NCBI GenBank assembly: GCA_964581935.1
Contig: CAZORN010000002.1
Span: 1 to 56,907, forward strand
Length of the DNA stretch: 56,907 bases
Direction: 5' to 3'
From: an uncultured Victivallales bacterium
GTDB taxonomy: Bacteria > Verrucomicrobiota > Lentisphaeria > Victivallales > UBA1829
The notes beneath the pieces are model-generated. The model saw only the letters and a list, made by a program, of their open reading frames with translations, ran no database searches and was not told where the DNA came from. Every line of letters begins with the position of its first letter. Positions within the stretch are counted from its first letter, which is position 1. The translations under genes and the position numbers were made by a program. Shown piece after piece: positions 4,568 to 31,424 of the stretch.

Positions 4568-4644
4568 GGGGACGTAGCTCAATTGGTTAGAGTGCCACCC
4601 TGTCACGGTGGATGTTGCGGGTTCGAGTCCCGTCGTTCCCGCCA
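4568..4644 (+). tRNA. tRNA-Asp (anticodon GUC)
   Basis: Manual cloverleaf. Acceptor stem: GGGGACG pairs with CGTTCCC. D arm: GCTC-AATTGGTTA-GAGT. Anticodon stem: CCACC pairs with GGTGG, with loop CTGTCAC and GTC at 4602-4604. T arm: GCGGG-TTCGAGT-CCCGT. Discriminator G and an encoded CCA. Confidence 0.95.
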
Positions 4645-4683
4645 TTTTTCTGTACCTCGCGGCTGAAAAATAACGGCGGAGCC

Positions 4684-9994: not shown

Positions 9995-12409
9995 TCATCG
10001 TTCCTTTCCTTTCAGGGATTGTTTTTCGGAGTCGGGGGTTTCCGTCCGCACCAGAAGAATCCGGTCCATCCAGAAAGCGTTTTCCTTTTGGGAGCCTTTC
10101 ACATAGGCGGGCCCGGTGAACTTCAGCGAAACGAATACCCGGTAGCGGTTTTCTTCCGGGTCATCCTTCCGGAAAAAACCGCCCAGCTCCTGCTGAAGGT
10201 ACCAGGTTTCATGCAGCCAGAGCAGGGCGGACGGTTCCAGTCTCACCGTGCCGAGCGGGTAAAAATGGTATTTTTCGTCCTGCGGGATACGGTCTTTCGG
10301 AATCACTGTGGAAAGAAGCATTCTGCCGTTGACGCGGTCCCGGATTCCCGCGGTAAACGCTTTGGCATGGAACGCCTCCGGATCGGCGATTCTCGGGGAC
10401 TTGTCCACGCCCATGGCCTTGCTTCCGGCCGCCTCGGGGTCATCGTTCATGCGGACGCCGTGAAATGTCAGGTCTCCGAACTTGTTGAAATCAGGGGCGG
10501 TGATTTCGTAAATTTCCTTTCCCGCAAGCTCACGCGGAACCGGATATCGAGCGCCCGGTTTGCGGACCCCGTTCTCGCGGAAAAATGCTTTGATCTGCGC
10601 CATGGATTTTTCAAGGGTTCCTCCCGCCAGTGTTTGACGGGCGGCGTCGGGCCAGTCTTTGGAAAGACGCGCGGCGACCTCGCCGGCATCCGGCTTGAAC
10701 CCGGGGATGTCGGGACAGCAGAGCAGTCGAGCGATGTCCAGCGGGACGCGTTCCCGGAGGACTCGCGAAGTCCTCTCCGGATCGTTCCGTACCGCATTCA
10801 GCGCGGACTGGATGAACCCTTCCGCCTTCCGGAAGAAATCAGGAGTAAGATATTTGCGCTCCAAAACGCCGCGGGTATCCAGCTCGGGTGCGGTCCGCTG
10901 AGCCTCGGCCAGCAGGTCGTAATACTCTCTCATGAAGGGCGCGGCCTCACCGTAACAGGCTTTCATGAAACGTCCGATCAGAGGCTCCAGTTCCTGACGC
11001 GGATCGCATTTGAGTTTGTATCCGGCCCACACCCGCAGCGCATGGAAGGTCGCGGTTTCCGGAAATTCGCATTCGCTGAAAACATAGTCGGCTCCGTTGT
11101 CGAGATATGTATTCAGATTTGAACGGATGGACTCCAGATTGACAAGGCATGCGTTCTTGTCCGGATTCGATCCGAAAAGAACCCAGTAATTCCATATCTG
11201 AATGGAACCGATGGAACTCCAGGTACGAAGCGATTCAAGGGTTTTCCGATTCCTCGGAAGCGTGAGCGGACGCATGGTGTCGAAGCCGCTGCCCCAGCGG
11301 CTCGGAGATACGCGGACCGTCACGTTCCGGCGCGGAACGATTCCTTCGGTCGGCGCTTTCTCGAAGGAAAGATAGGCGGACGTCTGAATCCGAACGTCGG
11401 GATACTTTTTTTCCACGGCCTCCGCGACGGCATTGACGAACTCCAGCATCCCTCCGGAAGGACTTCCGTATTTTTTCGTCCGGGCCGTGCATTCCGTACA
11501 GTGGCAGATATCCTTGATGTCATTGACCGAAAGATTGTAGAGCCGGGGCGGATTGTCCGGATTCAGCTTCCGGTCTTTTTCGATGTAGCCGATCATCTGG
11601 ACGGCAAATTTTTCTCTCGCGCGCGGACTCGAAAAACAAATCTGGCCGGGACCGAAAATATCAATGGGGCGAACCCGTTTTCCCGCCTCGTCGAGAGAAT
11701 AACAGTCCTCATACCCGTTTTCAGGCCATTCCTTCACGTAAAAAAACAGGGTGTTGAGCGGCTGTGGACTGCCGAACACCGGCGTATATCCGATTGCGGC
11801 GGACCGTTTTTCCGGAATTTTTTCCTCCCAGAAAATGTTCTCCCGACAGCGGGAAAGGAAGCGCATCCTGCGTTCGGGATCGTTGCTGTAACAGACATAG
11901 ATGCCGCGGTAAGCGAAGGCCGGTTTTCCGCGGAGATCGATTTTTTCCGGAAGAAGAATCGGGGCAGGCGGCGGAATATAGGTAAATCGTTCATCGACCC
12001 ATACGATTCCGGCAAATTTTTCGAGGAATTCATACGCGCCGTAAAGAGTCCCGCGGGGGTTGCCTCCGACGATTGCAACGCCGTCCGGAAAAGACCGGAT
12101 CAGCCACTCTTCCCGTCCCATGGAATCCGGGTCGATTTTTTTCGCGGCCGCAAAACGGGTCCGGCCCACGTAAATCGCATTTTTCAGGGCAGGCGAAGAG
12201 GATTCCTTCACACAGGGAATCTTGGTTCCCGATGCCTTGCCGAGATGTTCGGCAAGTTCCTGCGCAGCGTTCAATTCGGAAGGAGCGGGAGACTCCGGGC
12301 AAACCACAACGGAAATATCGCCGGGAATTGAAACGTTCACGGGAGCATCCCCGCGGACTATTCCAAAAGACATGAGGAAAAGGATCAGTGCAGAAATGAA
12401 AATTCGCAT
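9995..12409 (-). CDS. exported DUF4838-like putative glycoside hydrolase
   Basis: Start chosen at ATG 12409 (MRIFISALILFLMSFG signal peptide) with GGAGG 6 nt upstream. The N-terminal region (AAQELAEHLGKASG...IYVGRT...GNPRGTLYGAYEFLEKFAGIVW) is typical of DUF4838 and GH20/GH67-N-like proteins. Confidence 0.85.
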   Translation of the reverse strand: MRIFISALILFLMSFGIVRGDAPVNVSIPGDISVVVCPESPAPSELNAAQELAEHLGKASGTKIPCVKESSSPALKNAIYVGRTRFAAAKKIDPDSMGREEWLIRSFPDGVAIVGGNPRGTLYGAYEFLEKFAGIVWVDERFTYIPPPAPILLPEKIDLRGKPAFAYRGIYVCYSNDPERRMRFLSRCRENIFWEEKIPEKRSAAIGYTPVFGSPQPLNTLFFYVKEWPENGYEDCYSLDEAGKRVRPIDIFGPGQICFSSPRAREKFAVQMIGYIEKDRKLNPDNPPRLYNLSVNDIKDICHCTECTARTKKYGSPSGGMLEFVNAVAEAVEKKYPDVRIQTSAYLSFEKAPTEGIVPRRNVTVRVSPSRWGSGFDTMRPLTLPRNRKTLESLRTWSSIGSIQIWNYWVLFGSNPDKNACLVNLESIRSNLNTYLDNGADYVFSECEFPETATFHALRVWAGYKLKCDPRQELEPLIGRFMKACYGEAAPFMREYYDLLAEAQRTAPELDTRGVLERKYLTPDFFRKAEGFIQSALNAVRNDPERTSRVLRERVPLDIARLLCCPDIPGFKPDAGEVAARLSKDWPDAARQTLAGGTLEKSMAQIKAFFRENGVRKPGARYPVPRELAGKEIYEITAPDFNKFGDLTFHGVRMNDDPEAAGSKAMGVDKSPRIADPEAFHAKAFTAGIRDRVNGRMLLSTVIPKDRIPQDEKYHFYPLGTVRLEPSALLWLHETWYLQQELGGFFRKDDPEENRYRVFVSLKFTGPAYVKGSQKENAFWMDRILLVRTETPDSEKQSLKGKER

Positions 12410-12422
12410 TGGCAACCTCCGT

Positions 12423-13202
12423 TCAAGGCCTGTCTTTGATTCTGAACCAGTCACCGAGCACAGCCTGAGGCCGGGAGGGGTTCGTGTAATAATAACGGTA
12501 GCGGTTGGTCTCCTTGACCCATGTCATGGGATAAGAGTCGGCGCGTCCGTCGGCGGTCATCACCATTTTCTGCATGTTGTGCATGGCAAGGATTCCTTTC
12601 ATGGCGGTGTAAGCGGCATTCTCGGTGTCTAGGTGGTTTACCCAGTAGCCCTCGCCGCGAGCCCATTCGGAGGGCTGGATGCTGTCGCCGGGATTCAGAT
12701 ACAGGGAATCGGAACAGAAGACGGTGACGATCATGGAGTCGTATCTGGAGCGGCCCACACGGAAAATATAGGTGTATTTCGAGCTGTCGCGCTGGCCGAG
12801 CTGCTGTTCGATCATATAATTGATGTTGCGAGGAAGATTATTTTCATACCGCCACGCGGCGGCAGTGTAGTCCACGGTTTTGAGGGTCGTCGGGTCGGTC
12901 GGACAGGACAACGTTTTCAGTTGAATGTATTTTCCTTCCTTGAGCATTTGCCAGGAAGGCTTGTAGGTATTGGTATCCACCGTGCCTCCGTCGTAACGTC
13001 CGCAGGTGGGAAAATAATCGTTGCAGTCGCCGCTGTAGAGATGAATGGCCAGACCGCACTGTTTGAGGTTGCTCAAACAGGCTGTCCCCTGCGCCTTCTT
13101 TTTCGCGCTGTTCAGCGCGGGAAGCAGCATTCCCGCCAGAATGGCGATGATCGCAATCACGACCAGCAGTTCGATCATTGTAAAAAGCGTCTTTACCCGC
13201 AT
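12423..13202 (-). CDS. prepilin-type N-terminal cleavage/methylation domain protein with H-X9-DG motif (pseudopilin-like), copy 1
   Basis: N-terminus [49 protein letters not shown]-terminal [12 protein letters not shown] is H-X9-DG. It lies 13 nt upstream of the DUF4838-like gene. Confidence 0.9.
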
Positions 13203-14396: not shown

Positions 14397-16190
14397 TCAG
14401 CTTTGCGAGGACGCCGAAACCGTGAATGGAGGCGTTTCCGCAGAGCAGGGGAGGACGATGCGGAAGGAGCATCCCGCGTTGGGGACGCTCTCGAGCTCGG
14501 CGCGTCCGCCGTGAAGCTGGGCGATATGCTTGACGATCGCCAGCCCGAGTCCGGTTCCGCCGAGAGAACGGCTGCGTTCCTTGTGGACGCGGTAGAAGCG
14601 TTCGAAGATCCGCCCCTGGTGTTCCGGGGCAATCCCGATTCCGTAGTCGCGGACCTCGATTACGGCGGATTCGCCCTCCCGGTAGAGGGAAAGGTCGATG
14701 GTTTTGGAACCGCTGTATTTGATGGCGTTGTTGACGAGGTTGACGACCGCCTGTTCGAGGAGCTGACAATCGCCTTCGAGCTCAAGGGACTCCTGCTTTT
14801 TGACGGAAAGCGAGATTCCGTTCTGGACCGCTCTTTCCGAACAGAGGGAGATGGCGTTGGAAAGCATGGACTCCAGCTTCACGCGGGTGAACTCCTTTTT
14901 CGGGTCGAGCTGCTTGCGTTCCAGCGCGGAAAGGCTCAGGATGTCCTGCACCAGCATGTTCAGACGGTTGGTCTGGTCGAAGAGCATGGAGATGAGCTTG
15001 TCGAACTGTTCTTTGCTGAGGTCGGGTTCTTCGCGGATGGTTTCGACGGCGCCCACGATGCAGGTCAGCGGAGTCTTGATCTCATGGGAGACATTCGCGA
15101 TGAAGTCGCTGCGGAAGGATTCGAGCTTACGGAGATTCGTGAGGTCGGTGATCGTCAGGAGGAGGAACCGGGTATCGTTCTGGCGGATGGTGTTTCCCTT
15201 GATGAGAAGCGTGAGGGGGCCGTGATCCTTCTGGAGGGTGAACTCCTTTTCGAAGGAGTCGCCGGTCTGGAAGCTGTTGCGCGCCAGCGGGAGGAGCTCC
15301 GAAATGCCGGACCGTGCCAGGTTGAAACGGGCGTTCTGCTGGAGTCCGAAGAGCTTTCCCCCGGCATGATTGAATTTCTGGACATCCCCGTTGGAGGAGA
15401 AAAGGAGAACGGCTTCGGTCATGGCGTTGAGGATCGCTTCTTTCTCGTTGCGTTCGGCGGTCATCAGGGAAAGGTGTTCGCGGAGGCTTTCGGCCATTTC
15501 GGAGACGCCAAAGGCAAGCTCGCGGACGATTCCGCGCGGGGGAACGGGAATTGCGGTATCGAGCTCGCCGTTCGTAACGGATTCTACGGCGCTCTGGAGT
15601 TCGAGGAGCGGGCGTCGCACGTGAAGGATGATGTAGGCTGTCAGGAAGCCGACGAGGGTTGCGCCGAGGAGCAGGGCGAAAAGCATGTTTCTTTCGGCCA
15701 TGCGGAGGACCTGAAAGACATTGTCTGTGGAGACGGCCGAGCGGAGGACGAAATCGCCGTGATCGGTTTTGAGGAGTACGGCATGGTAGATCATCCACTG
15801 GTTGAGGCTTTCGCTGTAGCGGGTGACCGTGGCGGGGAGGCCCTGAAAGGCGTTCCGGATTTCCGGGCGGTTCAGGTGGTTGGAGAGGAGGGCGGCGTTT
15901 TCGGAAGAATCCGCACGGACTTTGCCGGAAGCGTCGATGAGGGTCAGGCGGAGAGTGTCCTTATCGAAATTGTCGCAGAATTTCCGGGCCTCGTCGAAAT
16001 GTCCGGTGTTGAGAATCGGGGTCAGGATCATGGAAACAAGGCGTGTTTCCTGCGCGATGTTGTTTTCGGCCTGCCGCATGTAGGCATTTTCGAAATAGGA
16101 AAGGTGCCAGAAAAGAAGGACCGCGGCAAGAGCCATGATCAACGCGGCGGAAACCGGAAGAAAAAAGAGAACTTTGTCGCGGTTCTTCAT
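14397..16190 (-). CDS. phoR: phosphate-regulon sensor histidine kinase
   Basis: H-box NVSHEIKTPLT, N-box NLVNNAIKYS, and G-boxes DYGIGI and GGTGLGLAIVKHI. The N-terminus has a TM segment. The gene lies 2 nt downstream of phoB in the pst-phoU cluster. Confidence 0.9.
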   Translation of the reverse strand: MKNRDKVLFFLPVSAALIMALAAVLLFWHLSYFENAYMRQAENNIAQETRLVSMILTPILNTGHFDEARKFCDNFDKDTLRLTLIDASGKVRADSSENAALLSNHLNRPEIRNAFQGLPATVTRYSESLNQWMIYHAVLLKTDHGDFVLRSAVSTDNVFQVLRMAERNMLFALLLGATLVGFLTAYIILHVRRPLLELQSAVESVTNGELDTAIPVPPRGIVRELAFGVSEMAESLREHLSLMTAERNEKEAILNAMTEAVLLFSSNGDVQKFNHAGGKLFGLQQNARFNLARSGISELLPLARNSFQTGDSFEKEFTLQKDHGPLTLLIKGNTIRQNDTRFLLLTITDLTNLRKLESFRSDFIANVSHEIKTPLTCIVGAVETIREEPDLSKEQFDKLISMLFDQTNRLNMLVQDILSLSALERKQLDPKKEFTRVKLESMLSNAISLCSERAVQNGISLSVKKQESLELEGDCQLLEQAVVNLVNNAIKYSGSKTIDLSLYREGESAVIEVRDYGIGIAPEHQGRIFERFYRVHKERSRSLGGTGLGLAIVKHIAQLHGGRAELESVPNAGCSFRIVLPCSAETPPFTVSASSQS

Positions 16191-16192
16191 GA

Positions 16193-16882
16193 TCAGAAAC
16201 CCTGTTTGAGGCGGTAGCCGACGCCGCGGACCGTTTCGATATTGATGCCCCAGTCGCCGAGTTTGCGGCGGAGGTTGACGATCTGTACGTCGATGGCGCG
16301 TTCCGTGACGGGGTAGTCTTCGCCCTTGATGCGGCTGATGATCTGGTTGCGGGTGTAGACGCGGCCCGGATGAGAGGCGAAGAGTTTCAGGATTTCGAAT
16401 TCGCTCAGGGTGAGGTCGAGTTCATTCCCCTGGAGCTTGGCGCTGTGGGTGTCGGAATTGATGACGAGTCCGGAGCAGCGGATTTCGGAACTGGTTTCCT
16501 GTTCGGCGAAGCCGCGGAGCTGAGCCCGGACGCGCGCAATGAGGATCTTGCGGCTGAAGGGTTTGGTGATGTAGTCGCACGCGCCCATTTCGAGTCCGAT
16601 GACGATGTCGGTCTCCTCGCTTTTGGCGGTGAGCATGATGACGGGAATGTTGCGGGTCTCTTCGCCTTCCTTGAGCTTTCGGCAGACGGTGAGGCCGTCG
16701 ATGCCGGGAAGCATGAGGTCGAGGAGGATGAGGTCGGGCAGGCGGAGCTGGGCCTGCCGCAGTCCGTCCTCGCCGTTTTCGGCGGTGTAGATGGTGGAGT
16801 ATCCGGCGGTTTCGAGAGTGAGTTTGACGAGGTCCCGGATCGGGGCTTCGTCTTCGATCAGCAGAATCTTTTCATTTGCCAT
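16193..16882 (-). CDS. phoB: phosphate-regulon response regulator (OmpR/PhoB family)
   Basis: Receiver domain (MANEKILLIEDEAPIRDLV...PDLILLDLMLPGIDG...MLTAK) plus a winged helix (LTLSEFEILKLF...VDVQIVNLRRKL...TVRGVGYRL). Start chosen at ATG 16882. The ORF track extends to 16960. Confidence 0.92.
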   Translation of the reverse strand: MANEKILLIEDEAPIRDLVKLTLETAGYSTIYTAENGEDGLRQAQLRLPDLILLDLMLPGIDGLTVCRKLKEGEETRNIPVIMLTAKSEETDIVIGLEMGACDYITKPFSRKILIARVRAQLRGFAEQETSSEIRCSGLVINSDTHSAKLQGNELDLTLSEFEILKLFASHPGRVYTRNQIISRIKGEDYPVTERAIDVQIVNLRRKLGDWGINIETVRGVGYRLKQGF

Positions 16883-17549
16883 GTCTGCGCCCTTCATGTT
16901 TGTGACGTACGATGTTTCCGCTTTCAAGATAGATGATGTCTTCGCAGATATTCGTCGCAATATCCGCGATGCGTTCCAGACATCGCGACACGGTCAGGCA
17001 ATCCATATAATAGCCAGACTCGTTCGGATGCTTCAGGATCATGTCCCGCACCCGGGAATAGTTTTCCCGGTGAATGTCGTCCACGGCATTGTCCATGCGG
17101 ATCACCTCGGTTGCGAGGACGACATCGTGGTAGGTCATGGAATCCAGAGATTTCCGGAACATCTCGCACGCACGGTTTACCATACACGAGAAATCGATTT
17201 TTTCAATCGGGGAATCCGCATAGTTGACCATATCCGGGACCCGTTCGGCGATGCTGGCCGCGAGATCTCCGGCGCGTTCAATTTCGTTATTGACTTTCAT
17301 GATGGTGACGACCTGCCGGAGATCGCCGGCCACCGGCTGGTAGAGCGCGAGGATCTTGAGGCATTCCTCCTCGATCTTGATTTCGGCGTCGTCGATGGCA
17401 TCGTCGCCCGCCTTGACTTTTGCGGCATCGTCCACCTGAAGCTTCTCCACCGCGTTGACCGAGAGAAGGATGGCCGCCTCGACCTGCGCCGCGACCTCGG
17501 AGATCATCTGGTTGAGTCCTTCGAGAGCCTGGATAAAATGGGCTTTCAT
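16872..17549 (-). CDS. phoU: phosphate signalling complex protein PhoU
   Basis: A two-repeat PhoU architecture with DDAIDDAEIKIEEEC...ERAGDLAASIAE and NAVDDIHREN...LERIADIATNICE. Confidence 0.92.
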   Translation of the reverse strand: MKAHFIQALEGLNQMISEVAAQVEAAILLSVNAVEKLQVDDAAKVKAGDDAIDDAEIKIEEECLKILALYQPVAGDLRQVVTIMKVNNEIERAGDLAASIAERVPDMVNYADSPIEKIDFSCMVNRACEMFRKSLDSMTYHDVVLATEVIRMDNAVDDIHRENYSRVRDMILKHPNESGYYMDCLTVSRCLERIADIATNICEDIIYLESGNIVRHKHEGRRHGK

Positions 17550-17567
17550 TGTTCCGAATCCTCCTTA

Positions 17568-18323
17568 TTAACCGAAGCGTCCGGTAATGTATTCTTCTGT
17601 TTTTTTGATTTTTGGATTGGTGAAAATCTGGCGGGTTTCTCCGAATTCGATGATTTCGCCCTTGAAGAAGAAGGCGGTGAAATCGCTGATCCGGGCGGCC
17701 TGCTGCATATTGTGCGTGACGATCACGATGGTGAACCGGCTTTTGAGATCAAACATGAGTTCCTCGATTTTGAGCGTGGCAACGGGGTCGATGGCGCTGG
17801 TGGGCTCGTCCATGAGAAGAACTTCCGGTTCGGTGGCGATGGCGCGTGCGATGCACAGCCGCTGCTGCTGTCCGCCCGACAGCGCAAGTCCGCTTGACTT
17901 GAGCTTGTCCTTGACCTCTTCCCAGATGGAGGCGCCGCGCAGGGCTTTTTCCACCCGTTCGGCAGTTTCCTTCGGGGAGAGCTTATAATGGAGCTTGAGC
18001 GGGTAGGCAACATTGTCGAATACGGACATGGGAAACGGGGTGGGTTTCTGGAAAATCATGCCGACCTTCCGGCGGAGTTCGAGCACATCGACGCCGGGGG
18101 CGAGGATATTTTCACCGTCGAGGAGGACTTCCCCCGTGACCTTCTGTTCGCGATAGAGCTCGAAAATGCGGTTGTAAATGCGTAAGTGGGTGGATTTTCC
18201 GCAACCGGAGGGTCCGATCACCGCCGTAATCCTGTTTTCCTCGACGCAGAGATTGTTGTTGAAAAGCGCCTGATGGCTTCCGTAGTGAAAATTGATATTT
18301 TTAGCCTCGATTTTAATGCTCAT
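17568..18323 (-). CDS. pstB: phosphate ABC transporter ATP-binding protein
   Basis: Walker [10 protein letters not shown], signature LSGGQQQRL, Walker [12 protein letters not shown], and the PstB-typical C-terminus YITGRFG. The true start is ATG 18323 (MSIKIEAKN). The 551-aa ORF-track entry reads on through pstA out of its proper frame. Confidence 0.95.
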
Positions 18324-19174
18324 GTTTTTTTCTCCCGGAAAATGATTCTTGTGGACAAATTGATCACCAGAACGAGCACCGTGACGACGAGGGCCGCGCC
18401 CCAGCCGGCCTGGTGCATGACCTCGAATGGAGAGTTGGTGGAGTATTCCGTGATGAGCACGGGCATGTTGGCGGTCGGACCGGTGAAGTAATTCTTCGGC
18501 CAGCCGTCGGAAAACAGGGCGGTGAACAGCAGGGGAGCGGTCTCCCCGCTGACGCGGGAAAGCGAAAGGAGGATTCCTGTGAGAAGTCCCTTGCGTGCAC
18601 TCAGACAGACGATGCAGAGGGTGGCGCGGGTCCGCGTCATGCCGAGGGCGAGGGCGGATTCGCGGAGGGCGTCCGGAACCATGCCGAGCATGTCTTCCGT
18701 GGTCCGCATGATGACCGGAAACATGATGATCGCCAGCGCGACGGAGGCCGCGAAGCCCGAGAAGTTGCCGGTCGGGAGAACCAGAATGATATAGGCGAAG
18801 AGCCCGACGAGCACGGAGGGAATTCCCATCATGACGTTGGCGGAGAAGCGGAGGATGTTGGAAACGGTTTTCCAGTCTTTGTATTCGGCGAGGAAGATGC
18901 CGGCGCAGAGGGCGGGCGGCACGGCGAGCACGGCGGCTCCGAACGTGATCATGACCGACCCGAGGAGGGCGTTTGCGATGCCGCCCCGGACGGCGCCGTA
19001 GGGCATGGTGGGCGTCGTGAAGAAGGAGAGGTTCATGGAGCGGAAACCGTAGCAGGCGACGGTGTAAAGGATCCAGAGCATGGCTCCGACCGCCAGCAGG
19101 ACCGCGGTGGTGGAGAAAATCTTCACGAATTGATTGGTCAGTTTCCGCCAGGTGAGGGGTCTTCGCTTCATCAT
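18320..19174 (-). CDS. pstA: phosphate ABC transporter permease PstA
   Basis: Multi-TM permease with ALGMTR...[15 protein letters not shown]. The start MMKRRPLTW at 19174 overlaps the pstC stop (ATGA), and the stop overlaps the pstB start. Confidence 0.9.
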
Positions 19175-20085
19175 CTTGCTTCTCCCCGTTTGGCTCCGGT
19201 CGCATGGAGATAGTATTGAGCAAGGACCTGGATGCCGAAGCTCATGACGAGGAGGACCAGTCCCAGCGCGAAAAGGGCGCTTCGCTGGAGGCCCTGCGCC
19301 TCGGCGAAGTGGTTGGCGAGGGTGGAGGCGATGGTGGCGGAACCGGAAAAGATGGAAGAGGGCATTTCCATGATGTTGCCGATCACGAACAGCACCGCCA
19401 TGGTTTCGCCGAGCGCGCGGCCGAGTCCGATGAAGACTCCGCCGAGGATTCCGCGGATTCCGTAGCGCAGGACGATATCCCGGGCGGTTTCCCACTTCGT
19501 GCATCCGACTCCGTAGGCGGACTCCCGCAGCATCGGCGGGGTCATGCGGAACACGTCCCGCATGATCGCGCAGATGTAGGGCAGGATCATGATCGAAAGG
19601 ATCAGTCCGGCGGTCAGGATTCCGAATCCGTTGAATTCGGTGCCGATGAGGGAAAAGCGTCCCAGTCCGAGAGTCTCCGACAGGAACGGCTGAACGTATC
19701 TTTGCATCAGGGGGGCGAGGACGAAGAGTCCCCACATGCCGTAAATCACACTGGGAATGGCGGCTAAGAGGTCGATCGAATGGCTGAGGACTTCGCCGAC
19801 GATGGGCCTTGCATCCACCAGATAGAGGGCGGCGGAGAAGGCCAGCGGCAGGGCGATGACCAGAGCGATCACGGTGGTGGAAAGGGTCCCGACAATGCTT
19901 GGCAGGGCGCCGTACTTGTCATTGACCGGATCCCACTCTCTCGACCACAGGAATGGAAGGCCGAATTCGCGCCAGGCCGAGAAGCTGCTGATGAAGAGCT
20001 GGATGAAGAACCCGAGCATCAGCACGCCGACCAGTCCGGCGCAAATCAGACAGAACCATTTGAAAGCCGTGTCATACCGGAACAT
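19171..20085 (-). CDS. pstC: phosphate ABC transporter permease PstC
   Basis: Multi-TM permease with the EAA-type loop [43 protein letters not shown]. Confidence 0.9.
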
Positions 20086-20094
20086 GAGGTCTCC

Positions 20095-20442
20095 TTATTC
20101 GAGGCCGTCGCGCTTGACCGCGATGACGGTCTTGGCTTTGTCGGACAGGACCAGGTTTCCCAGCTTGTCGAAAGCGATATCCGCGTTCCAGTCGGTTTTT
20201 TCGCTGATCCAGTGGATCACTTCGACGTTTTCCCACGGAATGATGCGGATCAGGGTGTCGCCGCAATGGATCTGGGAGCGGATCTGGTCGACGATCCGGC
20301 GGAAGTGGAAAGTTCTTCCCTTGACCACCACGTATTTGGCCGTTTCCTCGACCACGTTTCCGATGATGATGTGGGTATGCGCTTCCGGGTATTCCTTCTT
20401 GCAGCGCAGACGGATGTTTTTCCCTTTCAGATACTCTTTCAT
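20095..20442 (-). CDS. hypothetical 115-aa cytoplasmic protein embedded between pstS and pstC
   Basis: A clean ORF, 32 nt after the pstS stop and 9 nt before the pstC start. There is no signal peptide or TM segment. No family recognised. Confidence 0.7.
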   Translation of the reverse strand: MKEYLKGKNIRLRCKKEYPEAHTHIIIGNVVEETAKYVVVKGRTFHFRRIVDQIRSQIHCGDTLIRIIPWENVEVIHWISEKTDWNADIAFDKLGNLVLSDKAKTVIAVKRDGLE

Positions 20443-20474
20443 GTTCCTCCTTGATTCAGGATTTCAGAACCGGT

Positions 20475-21470
20475 TTACTTCAGGATTTCCTTGCGGATCA
20501 GAGCCACCACATTTTCCGGAATCGGAACATAGTTGAGCTTGGCCGCGGCGGTGCTCCCGGTGGTAAAGCACCACTCGAAATATTTCACCAGAGACTCTCT
20601 GACTTCTTTCTTGCAGTCCTTGCGGATCAGGATGTAGGTTACGCCGGTGATCGGCCAGGATTCGTCGCCGGGCTGGTCGGTCAGGACCATGTAGAATCCG
20701 GGGGCGTGCTCCCAGTCGGCGTTCATCGCGCTCGCGTTGAAATTCTTCACGGAAGGTTCCACGAACTTGCCGGCTTTGTTTTCAAGCAGGGTCATGGCGA
20801 GCTTTGCCTCCACGGCGTAGGTATATTCCGTGTAGCCGATGCTGCCGCGGATGCGTGCGACGTTGTTGCAGACGCCCGGGTTTTTCTGTCCGCCGATGCC
20901 CACGGGCCATTTGACGGCCGAGCCGGAGCCGACCTTGTCAGCCCATTCCTTGGAGATTTTCGAGAGATAGTTCGTGAAGATGAAGCTGGTGCCGCTGGCA
21001 TCGGCCCGGCGGACCACCGTGATTCTCATGCGGGGCAGGGTCAGGGACGGATTGGACGCCTTGAGCTTGGGATCGTCCCAGCTCGTGATCTTGCCGAGGA
21101 AAATGTCCGCAAGCGCTTCGCGGCTGAGGTTCAGTTCGGCATTCTTCACTCCGGGGAGGTTCACGATCACGACCACTCCGCCGGTCAGCATCGGAAACTG
21201 GAGGAGTCCGTGTTTCTGCTGGTCCTCAAGGGTCAGGGGATCGTCCGTGCCTGCGAAATCGATTGTTCTGGCCTTGATCTGGTTCACGCCCGCACCGGAA
21301 CCGATGCTCTGGTAGTTGACGCGGACGGAGGGAGTGCTCTGGCTGTAAGTATAGGTCCAGTTCTGGTAGACGGGAGCCGGGAAGCTGGCGCCGGCTCCGT
21401 TCAGGGTCTGTTCGGCTCCGACCGCTCCGAGGGAGGCCGCCGCGATGGCTGTTATCAGGATGTTCTTCAT
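20475..21470 (-). CDS. pstS: phosphate ABC transporter substrate-binding protein
   Basis: Signal peptide, then LNGAGASFPAPVYQNW...YQSIGSGAGVNQI...FAGTDDPL...GSIGYTEYTYA, which are typical PstS motifs. Confidence 0.92.
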   Translation of the reverse strand: MKNILITAIAAASLGAVGAEQTLNGAGASFPAPVYQNWTYTYSQSTPSVRVNYQSIGSGAGVNQIKARTIDFAGTDDPLTLEDQQKHGLLQFPMLTGGVVVIVNLPGVKNAELNLSREALADIFLGKITSWDDPKLKASNPSLTLPRMRITVVRRADASGTSFIFTNYLSKISKEWADKVGSGSAVKWPVGIGGQKNPGVCNNVARIRGSIGYTEYTYAVEAKLAMTLLENKAGKFVEPSVKNFNASAMNADWEHAPGFYMVLTDQPGDESWPITGVTYILIRKDCKKEVRESLVKYFEWCFTTGSTAAAKLNYVPIPENVVALIRKEILK

Positions 21471-21521
21471 GCTGTATTCTCCTTGTTCTGTTATTAATTT
21501 ACTTCCGTGGAATTCATTTCC

Positions 21522-21549
21522 GGTTGCGTGTTTGTTAGGATTGTGTCAG
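21522..21549 (-). promoter_or_regulatory. Pho-box-like array upstream of pstS
   Basis: The minus strand reads CTGACA caatc CTAACA aacac GCAACC, three hexamers with exact 11-bp phasing (plus-strand hexamer starts at 21544, 21533, 21522). The array lies 52-79 nt upstream of the pstS ATG. Confidence 0.4.
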
Positions 21550-21552
21550 GAA

Positions 21553-23160
21553 TCATTCTCCGCGTTCGCTGTCGATCAGATACTGATGATAGCCGTATTT
21601 GTTCCATTCGCCGGCGGTGTTCGTATCCTTCTTGATCAGCTTGATCTTTTCGAGGGATTTCTCGTCGATGATAGAGTTCGGCTGGATGATTTCGCATTCC
21701 GCGACAAGAACCAGATTGGATTTCTTCGTGGATTCGCGTTCCGTGGAGAAGAGGAATCCGACAAGCGGAAGGTCCTTGAGGAAGGGGACGCCGACCTGGT
21801 CGCTGACCACGTCCGTCTTTTCGATTCCGCCGAGATAGAGACGGTTCCGTCCGGTGCCGAGCATCACCTTCTGGCTCGAGTCCCATGCCGACGTCCGGAT
21901 CGTGCCGCTGGAATCGAAGCCGATCAGGGAAACGGTGCTGACATTCATCTGGACGGTGGCCGCCTTTTCGGTGATGGACGGGGTCACGTTCATCTGGAAC
22001 TTGAACTTGTCGTTGGCCGTCTTGACTTCCACGAAGTTGCCGGACTTGTCGGCGGCGGGAATCTTGGTCGATGCCGCGTACAGCGTGCCGCTCTTGCGGA
22101 GGACGTTCCCCGTGGCGCCGTTCCGGACCGCGATGTCGGCGGTGCTGAACACTTTGGCCTTGCCCTTTGACACAAGAAAGTCGAGGAACCGTGTGTTCCA
22201 TTTCGGTTCGAAGTTGAAGTAATGGGTGTTGATGGTTCCGCTGGGAGTGATCGGAACCGAGATGTTGTTGAGGTTGTAGTTGCGGCTCAGGTTCGCTCCG
22301 GTAGAGAAGAACTTCACGCCGTCGTTGTTCTTCCACGACTGGAAGTCGAGTCCGAGCATTCCGTCGTTTTCCGCACTCAGCTCGTAGACCGTGCACGAGA
22401 TGCGGATCTCGGGAAGCGCCACGTCATAGATCCGGAGCATCTCCTCGATGTTCTTCCGGGAGTAGAGCGCGGTGTTCATGAAGAGACAGTTCAGGTCTTC
22501 GTCCACTTCGATTTTGTCCTTGCCTCCGATCAGTTCGACGGTGTCGTTCGAGACGTTCGCGCCGACGAGCTTGATCATGGTCTGGAGCTCCTTTGCGCTG
22601 CGGTTCGCGGGAAAGTAGATGTATTTGGGCTGCCCCGAGGAGTTCATCAGGTTCGGCGCATCCAGTTTCTTGATCAGGGAGTCGATTCCCATTCCGTTGG
22701 TGCTGTCCTGAAAACGGTAATCTTCGGCGGCCACCATGATGACGCCGGTTCCGTCGGAAAACCGGATGCACTCCACCCCGGTCGGGACGAAGATTTTTTC
22801 CGTTCCGGCCAGGTTATCCTTATTATAGGTATTATAATAGGCAGGATTGCTTCTTCCCGCCGGGTTGTTGTAGTCCACCCGCAGGGCCTGCACCATTTCA
22901 CGGATATACGGACGCAGGGAATAGGGGTCCGCATGTTTCAGGACGTAGGTCTTGGTGATGATCTTGGGATCGTTGGTGTCGCGTATGAAGTGAACGGTGT
23001 CGGCGTCTTCGCGGATATTCAGGCGGAGGTGCGCCTGGACGTGGGACGGTGAATAAGCAGCATTTGCAGTGCTGGTCGGCTGTTCGTTCGCCAGAAGGCT
23101 CAATGTGCCGAAGGCCGCCATTCCGGCGAGGGAAATAATGCGTTTCATCTTGCGTTTCAT
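21553..23160 (-). CDS. secretin-family outer-membrane channel protein (copy B)
   Basis: It has a signal peptide and an N-terminal secretin-N-like module (KIITKTYVLKHADPYSLRPYIREMV). The secretin core begins at PEIRISCTVYELS and includes FLDFLVSKGKAKVFSTADIAVRNGATG. The C-terminal hallmark is VGVPFLKDLPLVGFLFS. Confidence 0.8.
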   Translation of the reverse strand: MKRKMKRIISLAGMAAFGTLSLLANEQPTSTANAAYSPSHVQAHLRLNIREDADTVHFIRDTNDPKIITKTYVLKHADPYSLRPYIREMVQALRVDYNNPAGRSNPAYYNTYNKDNLAGTEKIFVPTGVECIRFSDGTGVIMVAAEDYRFQDSTNGMGIDSLIKKLDAPNLMNSSGQPKYIYFPANRSAKELQTMIKLVGANVSNDTVELIGGKDKIEVDEDLNCLFMNTALYSRKNIEEMLRIYDVALPEIRISCTVYELSAENDGMLGLDFQSWKNNDGVKFFSTGANLSRNYNLNNISVPITPSGTINTHYFNFEPKWNTRFLDFLVSKGKAKVFSTADIAVRNGATGNVLRKSGTLYAASTKIPAADKSGNFVEVKTANDKFKFQMNVTPSITEKAATVQMNVSTVSLIGFDSSGTIRTSAWDSSQKVMLGTGRNRLYLGGIEKTDVVSDQVGVPFLKDLPLVGFLFSTERESTKKSNLVLVAECEIIQPNSIIDEKSLEKIKLIKKDTNTAGEWNKYGYHQYLIDSERGE

Positions 23161-23163
23161 CCT

Positions 23164-24627
23164 TTATTTTGCAAGGGTCTGGTTGACAAGTTCGGGTACG
23201 GGAACCAGTTTTCCCGTGATGGCCGCAATATCGGTGTCCGGGTGCAGGAGTTCCGCGCGGACCGAGAGGAAGTAGAAGTGTTTTTCCTTGATGCGCGTGG
23301 TGGTTCCGAAGATATATTTGAGGACCGGGAGTTCGCAGAGGAACGGAACGCCGATGGTCTGCTCCACTTCTTCATCCCGGGTCCAGCGGGAGAGCATCCG
23401 CTCACATCCGGTCTGGATCGTGACGGCGCTTTCATTCAGAGAATCCTCATAGAGCTCGTCGCCGAGGTTGTTGCGTTCGACCACGTTCTTCATGGCGAGC
23501 GAATAGGCGAAATTCAGGACCCCGATCTGTTCCGCGTAGTCCTTCGGGGAAAACTTCAGGCGTCCGTCCTTGTCCGTGTCTCCGGAAAGGGCGATTACCG
23601 GGTTTGTGACCGAGAGGACGAACCGGTCGTTGTCGGAGGTGACCACCGAACTGGCGAATTTATCGTTTTTCTTGAGGTTCTGAAAATTCGGGGAGAAAGC
23701 CAGCGAGGCGTTGTTTCCCGTGGAGATGGTCAGCGCTGCGCTGGTGGCCTGACGCGCTTTGCCCGCCTGCTGGAGAATCCGGATGAACGACATGTCAAAG
23801 CTCGGGGCGAACATGAAGAATCCGTAGGGGCCGAAGGCTTGCGCCAGGGCGGTGCTCTCCAGATACTTGGCACCGACATCGAACAGGTTCAGGCCGGGCC
23901 CGTTTTTCCAGGCCAGGTAGTCGATTCCCATGTCCAGCAGGTCGGCTTCCCGGATTTCATACACGTTCATGGAGAGGCTGAACTGCGGAACCATGCGGTC
24001 CAGCCATGCCAGATATTTCTTCAGGTCTTCGTCCTTCCGGGCGGAGTCTTTCCAGTAGATGCGGTTGGTCGCGCTGTCGAAGGCCACCGTCGCGTCCTGG
24101 TTGGCGCCTTCCGTGGCGTTCGAGGGAATTCCCGCCTTGATCATGATGTTCATCATCTTTTCAGTTCCGCGGTACTGCGGGACATAAACGCTGCGCGTAA
24201 TGCCGGTTCCGTCGATTCCGGAACCGTCTTTGCCCGTCACGTCCCGGTCCAGCTTTTCGATCATGTCGTCGATATAAGGCATCAGGGGAATCGGACAGCT
24301 GACCGCCACGAACTGCTTGTTTCCCGCCGGGTAGTTGATCCGGTCGGCGGAACCGTTGTTGGCATAGCGTCTGATCGCTCCCAGAATGAAGGGGACGATG
24401 TCGTTCGCCTTCTGGTGCTTCAGCTCATAGATTTTCGAAACCATGAAATTCTGGGCATCGTCTTCCACGAATCGGATCCGCTGGACTTTGCCGTTGATTT
24501 TTTCGACTTCGGTTTTTGCCTTCCAGCTTCCCGGGATTGTACCCTCCTGGCCCAACACCGGAACAACCATGCCTGACGCGCACAGAAAGAGCGCGGCGGT
24601 TGCTTGTGTCTTCTTCACGTTCATCAT
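23164..24627 (-). CDS. secretin-family outer-membrane channel protein (copy A)
   Basis: Start chosen at ATGATG 24627/24624 after AAGGAG. The ORF track extends to 24693. It has a signal peptide and an N-module (FMVSKIYELKHQKANDIVPFILGAI). The core is FSLSMNVYEIREADL...ILQQAGKARQATSAALTISTG, and the C-terminal hallmark is IGVPFLCELPVLKYIFG. The stop lies 3 nt before the copy B start. Confidence 0.8.
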   Translation of the reverse strand: MMNVKKTQATAALFLCASGMVVPVLGQEGTIPGSWKAKTEVEKINGKVQRIRFVEDDAQNFMVSKIYELKHQKANDIVPFILGAIRRYANNGSADRINYPAGNKQFVAVSCPIPLMPYIDDMIEKLDRDVTGKDGSGIDGTGITRSVYVPQYRGTEKMMNIMIKAGIPSNATEGANQDATVAFDSATNRIYWKDSARKDEDLKKYLAWLDRMVPQFSLSMNVYEIREADLLDMGIDYLAWKNGPGLNLFDVGAKYLESTALAQAFGPYGFFMFAPSFDMSFIRILQQAGKARQATSAALTISTGNNASLAFSPNFQNLKKNDKFASSVVTSDNDRFVLSVTNPVIALSGDTDKDGRLKFSPKDYAEQIGVLNFAYSLAMKNVVERNNLGDELYEDSLNESAVTIQTGCERMLSRWTRDEEVEQTIGVPFLCELPVLKYIFGTTTRIKEKHFYFLSVRAELLHPDTDIAAITGKLVPVPELVNQTLAK

Positions 24628-24710
24628 TTCTCCTTGTTTTTTCGCCGGTTCTTTTTTCCGGCGCAGCTGACAATTTTCCCCCTTGTCAAGCATCTAATTT
24701 AAATTCGGAT

Positions 24711-24749
24711 TGTTAGCGTATCGTGAAGAAATGGACAGCTCTTTGTGAA
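24711..24749 (-). promoter_or_regulatory. Pho-box-like array upstream of the first secretin gene
   Basis: The minus strand reads TTCACA aagag CTGTCC atttc TTCACG atacg CTAACA, four hexamers with exact 11-bp phasing (plus-strand hexamer starts at 24744, 24733, 24722, 24711). The array lies 84-122 nt upstream of the start codon. Confidence 0.45.
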
Positions 24750-24933
24750 TTTTTGGAAAATATTCGGATTTGGTTTGTACACGCTCGATTTCGACGCCGG
24801 GTTTTCGGCGTCTTACGGAACTCTAATGAAAATGACCGGAGCAAATCAAAGACAAAAAAAGGGCTTGCCGGGGGGTGACCCGTTTCAAACGGATCGAAAA
24901 CGGAACGTTAGCGGAATCGGGATGCGCGGAAGC

Positions 24934-25407
24934 TCAGAAAGCCGGGGAGGCTTCGGGGGAAAACAATCCGACCAGAATCCCGGGGCCTTCCGCTTTGCGG
25001 CAGATGGTCACGATCAGAGGTTTGGCGGAAGAAACGTCTCCCTCCCGCGGGGGCGTCTTGAGGGCATACGCCAGCAGGGCGTCCTCCTCGATCGCGGCGG
25101 CCACGCGGTTCAGCTTCTCAAGAGTCTCTTCCGGAATGCCGTAGGGGGCAAAGAATTCCTTGAACCGGGCGGCTTCGGTGAATTCATGTTCATCTCCGGA
25201 ATAGGGAGCCTCGAAAAATTCGGAAAGAAACGCCAGAAGAGCCGCCTTGTCGTCCATGCGGTCGGCGATCTCCTGCACCAGATTTCCCGGAAGCGACTGA
25301 ATCGGGGAATTCTTCGGTTTTGTCCAGCGCAGCATGCGCCAGGCCATGAGAAGGAGAAAGCCGGCGACCGCCATCGCGGTCAGTATTTTCAGCGCAAACC
25401 AGAACAT
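24934..25407 (-). CDS. hypothetical N-terminally membrane-anchored protein
   Basis: A 157-aa ORF with one N-terminal TM helix (FWFALKILTAMAVAGFLLLMAW) and an acidic soluble domain. No family recognised. Confidence 0.6.
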   Translation of the reverse strand: MFWFALKILTAMAVAGFLLLMAWRMLRWTKPKNSPIQSLPGNLVQEIADRMDDKAALLAFLSEFFEAPYSGDEHEFTEAARFKEFFAPYGIPEETLEKLNRVAAAIEEDALLAYALKTPPREGDVSSAKPLIVTICRKAEGPGILVGLFSPEASPAF

Positions 25408-26357: not shown

Positions 26358-26640
26358 ATGAGACATGAAGCGAAGAAAAAATCCTCGGTGTCCGCTCTCG
26401 ACGCCGGGCTTGACATTCTGGTTCGACGATCATGAAATTTTTCCGGTCCGCATGAGACTCGCCGCGCCCGTCCTGAATTCCAGCGGACGGATCGTCGGAG
26501 CCGTCGGAACGTCCTGGACCCGCATTTCTGTCCCGCCGAAACGCTTCTCCGACTTCACCGCCGAACTGCTCCGCCATGCCGCCCTTCTTACTGGAAAAAT
26601 TACCTCCTTACTCGATCAGCAGAACCGCGGGCCAGACATG
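26358..26640 (+). pseudogene. IclR-family regulator remnant (N-terminal ~20 aa joined out of frame to the C-terminal ~55 aa)
   Basis: The frame from ATG 26358 gives MRHEAKKKSSVSALDAGLDILVRRS*, resembling an IclR N-terminal V-x-S/A-L-x-x-x-L-D-I-L. The next frame gives MRLAAPVLNSSGRIVGAVGTSWTRISVPPKRFSDFTAELLRHAALLTGKI, resembling the IclR C-terminal effector-domain end. The central ~180 aa are missing. The 3' part overlaps the convergent 1325-aa gene. Confidence 0.45.
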
Positions 26641-29600
26641 GGGCCGGTTGAAACATCCGCCGCCGTCCGAGGCCAGCGTGAGGGCGCTGGTGACCTTTCC
26701 CGGGACATTGGCATTCGGGACAAAAAGACCGAAGCCGAATACCGTGCTCTTCCGCAGCTGGATCGGCAGCAGAAATTTCGCGGGGAAGAAGACCCGGTAA
26801 GTCAACACGCCGTTTCGATTCGAGAAAGAACACGGAATGTCCGCAGCCACCGTGTTATCCGGGGGCGCCTGGGTCGCCAGCCCGAGCTGCTGTTCCACCG
26901 AACGGTTGCGGAAGACCAGTGCGGAATCTCCTTTCGCATTCGGGAAGAGGGCGTAATCGTAGTCATTTTCGTCGTATCCGTTCCGTTTGGAACGGGCGTC
27001 GGCCATGGAATCGATGTAAATCTGCAGACAGTCGTTGTTCCAGCGTTCGCTTGTTTTCGGATATTCGGTATGCACGAATTCAGAATCCTTTACCGTTACC
27101 TCGAGGAAAAGCCCGTTCCGGTTCCAGGCCATACGGAAGAACCCGGAGGTTTCTTTTGCCATGTAATTCCGGGAAAAGGCGATCGAAGGGATTTTCTCCC
27201 ATTGGATGTTTGAGAATGAAGTTTCACCGTCGATTCTTTTCGCTTCGAAAGCCTCGAACGGGAGGTTGTATTCATATTCAGCTCCAGAATCGGCGCGAAG
27301 ACGGAAACTCAGCGGTTCGGGCGTAACCGCATTGTCTTTGAGGGGCGCGGGAAGGGGAAGGATGACCGTCGCCGTCCCGGATCCGGGAACTTTCACCTGC
27401 GTTTTTCCGATGAAACCTTTGAAGTCGCTCGAGAGGAAATTCCGGAACGTGATTTGAGCTTCGCGTCCACTCAGCGGATTGACGATCACTTCCAGAGGGG
27501 AAACGCCTTCCCCGGAAACGATCACCGCTTTTTCGAGCGCGGAAACCATTTTTGTCAATGTTCCGGGTTTTCCGCGCAGAAAAATCGGGAAGGAAGAAAC
27601 CGGGAATCGGAATTTTCCCGCGGTGAACTTGCGGGGTGAATTCATCAAATCGAAAATACCCTCGAGCGAATCGCCGAAATCCGCCTCGGCCACGGGAGCG
27701 TCGGAGCGTCCGTCGTCCACTTTGTCCAGATAGCACCAGATGGCGGCGACCGGGCGTTTCAGTTCATCCTCGAACACATAGGCGCGGATGAACGGCGCAA
27801 AGCGGATGTCCTTTTGGAAACGCGAATTGCCCAGCAGAATTCCCAGCGTATTCGGAACCAGCTGAGCCGCGTAAGGAGTGAGCATCACGTCCATTGCAAA
27901 GTTGTTGTAGGTGTTCCCCGCAGTCGCGGTCACGATCCGGTCGGAATATTTGAGCGCAACCAGATACGCCCGTGCATACCAGGCGGCGCTGACTTTTTCG
28001 GTCCATCCCATATCATAGCTCAGCAGCGACCCCGGCCAGGTGCGAGGCACCCCGCTCCATGTGGACGGATCCACGTCCCATTGCGGGATACGGAATGGGC
28101 CCCAGTGCATCATTTCCGGCCACGACACCGGGGTTTTTCCGTAGCCATGCCTGTCGAGCATGTTGAAAAGCGTCTGCGTATCGGCATCGAGGTCGGGCGA
28201 TTCCGGGCTTTGACGGTAGGGATGGATCGCAATCATATCGAATTTCACACCGAACTGATTGCATTCCTTCAGCAGACGGTCGGTTTCGGCGATGCCGCCC
28301 TCGGGACGCATATTGCAGGGATCATCCTGGAATATTTTTGCATTCGGATTCCCTTCGCGCACGCCCTCGGCAAAAGCCTTCAGCAATTGAGCGTGAATTT
28401 TCGCACATTCTTCCTCCGAGCCGTTCGCACTCCACCATTCGGGAGGAAATTTGGCGATGAATTCTCCGGCCAGCCCCCACATCGGAACATGCGGATATTT
28501 GGCGGCAACGGTCTCGACCGCATTTTTGAATTTTTTCAGATATTCCGGGGTGATCTTTCCATTGGAATCGAAATGAAAATCGCGCACCAGCAGTCTCTTG
28601 TCGCCGGCAAGGACAAAGGATTCCGTTGCTTCCGCGTCCAGAATGCCGAACCCGACCAGCTTCCGGTTTTCATCGCGGAGCCAGCTCATCATGAAAGCGC
28701 TCAAGGGCGTTATTCCATAATTTTTTTCAATGTCCCAGACCTCTTTGCGGAAAGTGTGATGATGTGCTTTCATACCGATCCCGGTTTTTTTCCAGCGTTC
28801 AAGACAGCGGAAAAAATCATAGAATAATTCCGGGTTTCCATAGTCCGCGGAAAAAAGATTCTTGAGACGGTGTTTGTTTTCCAGAAATTCCACCTTTGAA
28901 TAGCGGTGGAAATCGTATGCCTTCGTGCCGTCTCCGAGCGCATAGTCGGCCCGCAGCATGAATACGCCGAGTCCCGGAAGATCCTCCAGCGGCAAGGCAA
29001 TCTCCGCCGTTCCTTTTTCATCGGTATTAAAGTCGAACTTCCGGTTGAGGAGTTCCTCTCCGAAAAAATTTTTTACCCGGATATTCGCCGTTCCCGGCAT
29101 ATTTTTCTTTTCCGTGACGATCGCGAGGCGTCCGTCAATCCGATTTTTTGCGGAAACGAAATTGTCCGGGTCGGAAGTCCGGAGCCATCCTTCGACGGGC
29201 TTCGGCTCGAATGCGGTAGCCTGACCACCGCGCTCGAGTTGAAGTGCGTCGACCCAGACCCGGGTCTCCTTGCCAGATGGACTCCAGACGTTGAAGTGCA
29301 TTTCCAAAGGCATGCCCTGCTTCACGTCGAAGGAGAAGGAATACCGTTTCCACTCCGGTGAAACGGTAAATCTCCCGACCGCTTCCTGACTGAGCGCCGC
29401 GTAAAGACTGCCGGAATGAAAATTCGGTATCCATGCATTGAGTTCCGCCGTTGCGCCCGCTTCGCATTTCGCATGCAGGCTTGCGGTGTATTTTCCCGGC
29501 GGAACCACCGCAACGGAAGTCGTCAGGTTGACGCCCCCCCGGAGACGCCGGTAATCGGTATCTTTCACTGTACGAGCATCCATTTTCAGCGAATGACTGC

Positions 29601-31411: not shown

Positions 31412-31424
31412 TGATCTATCCTCC

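Follow-up and report, generated by a model that had tools for sequence, protein, structure and literature searches.

A tandem secretin pair joined to the pst and pho genes in Victivallales and its predicted place in the Pho regulon

Secretins are giant gated rings of 12–15 subunits, and in the textbook account they are exit portals tied to dedicated machines. OprP and OprO of Pseudomonas and PhoE of E. coli are Pho-regulon outer-membrane porins that are functionally coupled to Pst uptake. Why, then, should two secretin genes stand at the head of a set of phosphate-uptake and phosphate-regulation genes? Such an arrangement is found in a 56,907-nt stretch of DNA from an uncultured Victivallales bacterium (contig CAZORN010000002.1 of assembly GCA_964581935.1, positions 1 to 56,907; the whole stretch is called the window below), in which two secretin genes, here named secA and secB, directly precede pstS. 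The comparison of about 95 related loci makes it probable that this is a PhoB/PhoR-controlled phosphate-acquisition locus, in which an obligate secA–secB module of the kind termed type I below is joined to, and partly interleaved with, pstS-orf115-pstCAB-phoU-phoBR. It also predicts with good confidence that secA and secB are members of the Pho regulon and form a two-component secretin functionally tied to phosphate acquisition. An order-wide, stand-alone secretin pair wired into the Pho regulon and pst would widen the roles of secretins, and the pair would be the first candidate hetero-oligomeric secretin. It would also provide the outer-membrane step that has been missing for phosphate acquisition in a little-studied lineage of the Planctomycetes–Verrucomicrobia–Chlamydiae (PVC) group, a lineage frequent in anaerobic digesters and in the guts of humans and animals.

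Two short secretins that stay together

The gene secB (21553–23160, minus strand) encodes a secretin paralogue of 535 aa with a signal peptide, two N-domains, a full secretin domain and a C-terminal helix. Its start lies 3 nt past the secA stop, which points to translational coupling. The protein matches the Pfam Secretin family (PF00263) with 66 bits against a cut-off of 27.5, the full domain lying at residues 329–492, and a profile of secB homologues has GspD structures as its best match in the PDB (E 2e-17). The gene secA (23164–24627, minus strand) encodes a more divergent paralogue with a signal peptide, two N-domains, the secretin barrel and the C-terminal motif IGVPFLCELPVLKYIFG. Its longest open reading frame (ORF), 23164–24693, would give 509 aa. 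The Pho-box and −10 elements predicted at 24696–24727 would place the transcript start at about the ATG at 24693, so the true start codon is probably the ATG at 24627, which has an AAGGAG Shine-Dalgarno sequence and gives 487 aa. The signal peptides of both proteins were judged by eye from the sequence. With 23.5 bits, secA lies under the Pfam cut-off and is not placed in the family by sequence. The first-pass annotation of the window, which had named both genes as secretins from their C-terminal hallmark, is thus borne out by the family profile for secB and not for secA.

For secA the predicted fold fills this gap. AlphaFold2 models of both proteins (pLDDT 65 for secB and 73 for secA) contain a signal-peptide region, two beta-alpha-beta-beta-alpha ring-building domains and a long-hairpin barrel subunit. 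In Foldseek searches against the PDB, the top 40 matches of each model were exclusively secretins, with E-values down to 1e-15 for secB and 2e-20 for secA, and included GspD, InvG, PilQ, pIV, BfpB and RcpA; secA also matched the N-domains of XcpQ. As its model matches secretins only, secA is by predicted fold a secretin despite its sub-threshold Pfam score. The two proteins are full-length paralogues (22% identity over 465 aa, E 1e-20), so that the earlier description of the leading genes as short, paralogous secretins with signal peptides and N-domains holds on fold and paralogy. No porin family was found among the Pfam and NCBIfam matches of either protein.

Neither protein belongs to a characterized secretin type. 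With the GspD equivalog model TIGR02517, secB and secA score 57.6 and 23.5 bits against a cut-off of 351; with the PilQ model TIGR02515 they score 51 and 28.6 bits against 284. The Amuc_1098_fam model gave 23.9 bits against 750, the SctC, MshL and HofQ models failed as well, and no NCBIfam equivalog or subfamily secretin model was passed by either protein. Like GspD, PilQ, pIV and RcpA, which are members of PF00263, the pair has a C-terminal barrel with a GVPxL...P motif, ring-building N-domains and a signal peptide, and GspD is closest. Unlike them, the two proteins are short (about 460–510 mature residues), always form a heterologous tandem and never adjoin a cognate ATPase, platform, pilin or phage gene. 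The models contain two N-domains per protein in place of the four-domain N0-N1-N2-N3 terminus of GspD, and none of these can be called an N0 docking domain with confidence. The Cys in the signal peptide of secA is not conserved in the homologue alignment, so the two proteins are not liposecretins; secB has no lipobox. A liposecretin or pilotin in the window was therefore rejected, since the 157-aa ORF upstream of secA and orf115 also fall outside the pair-associated lipoprotein family described below. A filamentous-phage secretin was rejected as well: the sole PHROG match, 1012 (M13 pIV), is expected of any secretin, and the pair has no phage genes around it and is kept chromosomally across the order.

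The two genes are inherited together. GTDB species representatives were scanned with a secA alignment, which gave 165 matches; the best 80 were fetched, and later loci brought the set to about 95. All homologues of secA and secB belong to Victivallaceae, Victivallales or Lentisphaeria, and the nearest relatives of the window, which include GCA_037975395.1 and "Lentisphaerae bacterium ADurb.Bin242", share 84–96% protein identity with it. The window is therefore assigned to a Victivallaceae bacterium of a kind that lives in anaerobic digesters and guts. In every Victivallales locus with enough sequence (about 95 loci), secB directly follows secA, with a median gap of 15.5 nt and a gap of 25 nt or less in 64 of 78. 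Neighbour-joining trees of secA and of secB recover the same clades, namely type I, which includes the window, the Victivallis-type clade Ib, and type II. Twelve to 13 genomes contain one type I/Ib pair together with one type II pair, and none contains two type I pairs, which indicates that the secretin pair was duplicated as a unit, long ago. The earlier idea that the two products form a hetero-oligomer gains support from this constant company, close spacing and apparent joint duplication.

The type II pairs (L045–L087 and L089) have the same secA-to-secB architecture and are an ancient duplicate of the whole pair. They differ in that they never adjoin pst, have no recognizable Pho box and are usually flanked by a gene for a lipoprotein of about 150 aa that is weakly DUF3887-like (25 pairs). 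This flanking lipoprotein (e.g. L054:7099-7554 and L060:13134-13577) is a candidate pilotin.

Predicted Pho boxes and linkage to pst

Upstream regions of pstS in 11 genomes contain CTAACA-N5-CTAACA direct repeats with an 11-bp period, the layout expected for a PhoB of the OmpR family. A Pho-box matrix was built from these pstS promoters only and then applied to the regions upstream of secA, a match being counted at 12 bits or more within 260 nt of the gene; the background was 56 matches in 2.65 M positions. Matches were found at secA in 11 of 21 type I pairs linked to pst (binomial p 5e-20), in seven of 15 unlinked type I pairs (p 9e-13) and in four of seven type Ib pairs (p 3e-8). None was found in the 32 type II pairs. 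As many as 36 of the 56 matches lie at secA or pstS promoters, and the remainder fall mostly within coding sequence.

In the window, a scan of both strands at 10 bits or more gave two matches at pstS (21522–21549), one before secA (24761–24777) and no others. The pstS boxes, on the minus strand, read CTGACA-N5-CTAACA-N5-GCAACC and score 24.2 and 10.3 bits, and this site is kept before pstS in at least 11 related genomes. The predicted PhoB-dependent promoter of secA (24696–24777, minus strand) consists of 11-bp-periodic direct repeats and a −10-like element. Its repeats at 24696–24749 read TTCACA-N5-CTGTCC-N5-TTCACG-N5-CTAACA and are followed after 10 nt by the −10-like TAAATT; the further matrix match at 24761–24777 is CAAACCAAATCCGAATA. 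The Pho-box-like repeats that had been reported before both secA and pstS are thereby confirmed. A composite pattern that joins the box to the −10 element (half-site-N6-half-site-N9-11-TANNNT) was present in 23 of 43 type I/Ib secA promoters against none of 32 in type II (Fisher 9e-8), with 36 matches in 2.65 Mb overall. The pattern YTNAY-N6-YTNAY-N10-TANNNT occurs once on both strands of the window, at secA (24696–24727), where 0.09 matches were expected. This match is the 3' end of the four-repeat array, and an equivalent site is kept in relatives.

Other genomes repeat this picture. Victivallis vadensis, whose pair is not linked to pst, has CTCACG-N5-CTTACA-N5-CAAACA-N9-TATATT at −99 of secA, with 18.3 bits, and two later, independent loci, L090 and L092, have boxes at both the secA and the pstS promoters (the L090 protein was seen on more than 170 gut-metagenome contigs). 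In the clade of L029–L033 and L041, the only Pho boxes stand before secA, in one or two arrays, and none is recognizable before pstS; the spacers between secB and pstS are 100–362 nt long there and contain GC-rich hairpins. The sole Pho box before secA fits a genuine single operon in this clade, where the secA promoter may be the one that drives the pst genes.

The synteny of the pair with pstS, known at first from the window, is conserved in about 25 species-level type I loci, in which pstS comes directly after secB with a spacer of 17–362 nt (median 92). Among the linked loci the outer flanks are unrelated and protein identity falls to about 42–50%. The linkage is found in four subclades: the Victivallaceae clade of the window, L029–L033/L041, L092 (sister to the unlinked L084) and L079. 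It is not universal, since pairs apart from pst occur in V. vadensis DSM 14823 (L052/L007), in a Victivallis sp. Marseille-Q1083-like genome (L088, 73% identity), in L024 and L005, and in others. Most of the pst-unlinked orthologous pairs retain the Pho box. Four positions in the tree and about as many unlinked pairs imply that the linkage is either ancestral with repeated loss or was gained repeatedly, and in either case is not a one-off event.

Accessory genes tie the two sets more closely. The gene orf115 (20095–20442, minus strand), between pstS and pstC, encodes a small protein without a signal peptide that has no match in Pfam, NCBIfam, PHROG or the PDB; its homologues form 37 clusters, all from Lentisphaeria. 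It accompanies the secretin pair as much as pst. A homologue (L005:4281-4625; 30% identity, E 4e-15) lies upstream of a lipoprotein-secA-secB cluster in the pst-unlinked L005/L028, and in L010 orf115 directly follows secB. The DUF3887-like lipoprotein gene of the type II pairs lies between pstS/orf115 and pstC in L016, L022 and L026, and upstream of secA in L005/L028 and L092. That genes associated with the pair are interleaved with pst genes argues against mere adjacency. A link to iron uptake was also considered. In L093 (6562-12547), feoA and feoB come after a type-I-like pair and share its strand, and the intervening spacer contains a strong GC-rich hairpin. The adjacency was treated as chance, given this hairpin and the next relative, L095, which is without feoAB.

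Entry channel or export portal

The pair is read here as a Pho-regulated outer-membrane component that is OprP/PhoE-like in logic and HxcQ-like in fold, and that stands outside the GspD, PilQ, SctC and HxcQ-type families. Its position ahead of pstS suggests the same logical role as that of OprP, OprO and PhoE. The latter are trimeric 16-strand barrels with anion-selective pores, whereas the pair are secretins, unrelated in fold and size. HxcQ of P. aeruginosa is likewise a secretin, one of the Pho response that is induced by phosphate limitation and serves phosphorus scavenging (PMC9769906; PMC4899797), and Pho control is predicted for the pair as well. HxcQ, however, is a lone, lipidated secretin whose gene belongs to a complete hxc type II secretion system (T2SS) cluster beside the cargo genes lapA and lapB, whereas the pair consists of two non-lipidated paralogues with two N-domains each, fused to pstSCAB-phoU-phoBR. 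No hxc-like, T2SS or phosphatase cargo genes were found among its neighbours. In the literature searched, there was nothing on secretins of Lentisphaerae or Victivallis, on hetero-oligomeric secretins or on links between secretins and pst, the Hxc system being the only precedent. An obligate tandem-paralogue secretin, a stand-alone Pho-regulon secretin and a fusion to pst are thus not described there. A secretin complex of D. radiodurans (PDB 8co1) was rejected as a precedent for two secretins in one structure, as it consists of a belt and a cap.

The analysis establishes the order of the genes, the secretin fold, the obligate pairing, the conserved linkage to pst and the conserved architecture of the Pho-box promoters; induction by phosphate limitation, a hetero-oligomer, independence of a pilus, and what crosses the ring and which way are inferred. 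When phosphate is limiting, PhoB~P would bind the direct-repeat Pho boxes before secA and pstS, in which CTAACA-like half-sites recur every 11 bp and end 9–11 nt ahead of the −10 element. secA and secB would be expressed from one transcript with coupled translation, and their products would be exported by Sec and co-assemble into one outer-membrane secretin ring. With no dedicated type II or type IV pilus (T4P) machine, the ring would be a starvation-induced wide channel and the outer-membrane step of the Pst route. It would admit phosphate or bulky phosphorus compounds (nucleic-acid fragments, polyphosphate, organophosphates) to the periplasm, where PstS and PstCAB would take up phosphate.

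Such a machine-independent entry channel feeding Pst is tentatively favoured over HxcQ-like export, on several grounds. The pair comes before pstS, so that the genes follow the path from the outer membrane through the periplasm to the inner membrane; its accessory genes are interspersed among those of the importer; about 95 loci contain no machine or cargo genes; and the N-terminus is reduced. The lineage also offers a precedent for secretins that pair with ABC transporters. In L006 (237-5309, minus strand; ENA ERZ28564105 scaffold_68), a 512-aa Secretin protein is encoded with a YknX-like adaptor, an ABC ATPase and a MacB/FtsX permease; this operon is a MacAB-type tripartite pump with a secretin in the expected place of TolC. 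The full proposal, a heteromeric and machine-independent secretin as the phosphate-starvation entry channel and outer-membrane partner of the Pst ABC importer, is put forward still more cautiously. If true, it would be the first case of a secretin in nutrient import, a porin-like role, and the first of an obligate hetero-oligomer among secretins. The type II pair with its lipoprotein and the MacAB-linked secretin would then show that secretins serve ABC transporters in Victivallales as outer-membrane ducts of general use. The proposal can be tested directly, since Victivallis vadensis DSM 14823 can be cultivated and holds an orthologous pair behind a strong predicted Pho box.

Several points weigh against an entry channel under Pho control. 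We know of no natural secretin that serves passive import, and it normally takes a pilus, needle, phage or cargo to open the closed periplasmic gate of a secretin. Roughly half of the type I/Ib pairs do not adjoin pst, and about half of the type I secA promoters fall under the motif thresholds. The data had already been inspected when the score threshold and the composite pattern were chosen, and Pho control of secA and secB is read from motifs, although it is well supported by comparison. The AlphaFold2 models are of moderate confidence and do not prove the absence of N0. Genes for pseudopilin-like N_methyl/DUF1559 proteins are abundant, and a pseudopilus machine encoded elsewhere could use the pair. 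Finally, HxcQ, the known phosphate-starvation secretin, exports enzymes (PMC9769906).

The last two points lead to the most serious competitor, which is considered possible and, on balance, rather unlikely. The type I pair would then be a phosphate-starvation portal on a type II-secretion or pseudopilus machine encoded elsewhere, releasing phosphatases, nucleases and other scavenging proteins. All characterized secretins are exit or assembly portals, secB is closest to GspD by both profile and fold, and one Pho-box pair with one non-Pho pair per genome would fit a starvation portal beside a housekeeping portal. In P. aeruginosa, Pi limitation turns HxcQ and further Hxc proteins from OFF to ON, and these secrete LapA and LapB (PMC9769906), LapA being annotated as a PstS-family protein (PMC4899797). 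Beside about 95 pairs, however, no ATPase, platform, GspC-like or phosphatase/nuclease cargo gene is conserved; no T2SS/T4P ATPase, platform or pilMNOP genes lie beside the pair in any Pfam-annotated locus; and the 57-kb window is without gspC-M-type T2SS genes (secretion ATPase, platform). The earlier statement that no assembly genes lie nearby therefore stands for ATPase and platform genes, but it overlooked three pseudopilin-like genes in the window, which count in favour of export. When the flanking ORFs of the other loci were clustered, the only conserved families were pst genes and the lipoprotein, besides a genus-level synteny with the Victivallis T4P cluster. The V. vadensis-like L007 (1-5633, minus strand) has a pilus cluster of the Akkermansia Amuc_1098-1102 type, with an 849-aa secretin, PilM_2, an Amuc_1100-like and an Amuc_1102-like protein; the secretin pair is encoded a few kb downstream of this cluster and in divergent orientation to it. 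The two N-domains in place of four, none confidently N0, the failure of the GspD equivalog model and the interleaving with importer genes likewise argue against export.

It is improbable, by comparison, that the pair has a general function in pseudopili, pili or the export of polysaccharide and merely lies beside pst in some lineages, the repeats upstream of it not being functional PhoB sites. The many pairs that are not beside pst, the one related pair beside feoAB, itself probably a chance adjacency, and the type I promoters that miss the thresholds would all fit such hitch-hiking. A motif trained on pstS, however, marks secA in linked and unlinked genomes and never in type II (22 of 43 type I/Ib pairs against 0 of 32), pst-unlinked genomes such as Victivallis vadensis included. 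Its matches in the window lie solely at the secA and pstS promoters, and the linkage recurs in four subclades with pair-associated genes interleaved with pst. The block of L029–L033/L041, whose sole Pho box is before secA, is also hard to reconcile with chance. It is least probable of all that the pair brings the adjacent PstS, or a PstS-like binding protein, out of the cell or onto its surface, so that phosphate is bound beyond the outer membrane in the manner of secreted LapA/DING proteins: pstS is the next gene in about 25 loci and the Hxc-secreted LapA is of the PstS family (PMC4899797), but the PstS of the window is canonical and periplasmic at equivalog level and has permease genes of its own behind it, the Pho box persists in unlinked pairs that have no pstS beside them, and the loci showed no second copy of pstS.

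The pst-pho genes and the surroundings of the pair

The block on the minus strand (14397–24693) contains ten closely packed ORFs, whose boundaries were re-derived: secA, secB, pstS, orf115, pstCAB, phoU and phoBR. From secA to phoR the spacings are 3, 82, 32, 9, −4, −4, 18, −11 and 2 nt. The first-pass annotation had given these same spacings exactly and had counted eleven genes, although its own list contains ten. Family models and annotated orthologues identify all seven Pst/Pho components (7/7), in operon order. The periplasmic phosphate-binding protein PstS (20475–21470) matches TIGR00975 with 376 bits against a cut-off of 205. It is followed by pstC (19171–20085; Pfam BPD_transp_1), which overlaps pstA (18320–19174) by 4 nt, as pstA does pstB (17568–18323); the identities of pstA and pstB come from Pfam-annotated orthologues (ABC_tran in the case of pstB). 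The regulatory genes are phoU (16872–17549; Pfam PhoU), phoB (16193–16882; Response_reg/Trans_reg_C in orthologues) and phoR (14397–16190; Pfam HAMP, PAS and HisKA/HATPase_c). All of them are on the minus strand.

No intrinsic-terminator-like site was found in any intergenic spacer of the ten-gene block, the 82-nt spacer between secB and pstS included. This spacer folds no better than shuffled sequence (z = 0.06), and a terminator or other RNA element in it was rejected for these reasons. The view of the block as one super-operon is upheld to the extent that the secretin pair is joined to a complete pst/pho set without a terminator in between. The pstS of the window, however, has a strong Pho-box promoter of its own, so that the block may consist of two units under common regulation, with read-through from one into the other.

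Upstream of the secA promoter lies a 157-aa membrane-anchored ORF (24934–25407, minus strand), which has the same position in L001 and L094. It matches no family, does not belong to the pair-associated lipoprotein family and is kept in the closest relatives only, so that its membership in the module is uncertain. GCA_037975395.1 shares both this gene and the flanking gene for a 1325-aa CBM9 protein (26608–30585). The three pseudopilin-like genes, which encode N_methyl and DUF1559 (SBP_bac_10) domains, are at 12423–13202 (minus), 30605–31453 (minus) and 38187–39002 (plus). They adjoin AraC/GntR regulators and large carbohydrate-binding or glycosidase-like proteins, among them the CBM9 protein and an 819-aa DUF4838 protein (9995–12454), and look like a repeated type of cassette.

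An Rfam scan of the window gave a single match, one tRNA. A tRNA-Asp(GTC) gene at 4568–4644 (plus strand) is overlapped by an ORF for a tyrosine recombinase/integrase (4612–5577), and this site may be the edge of an integrated element.

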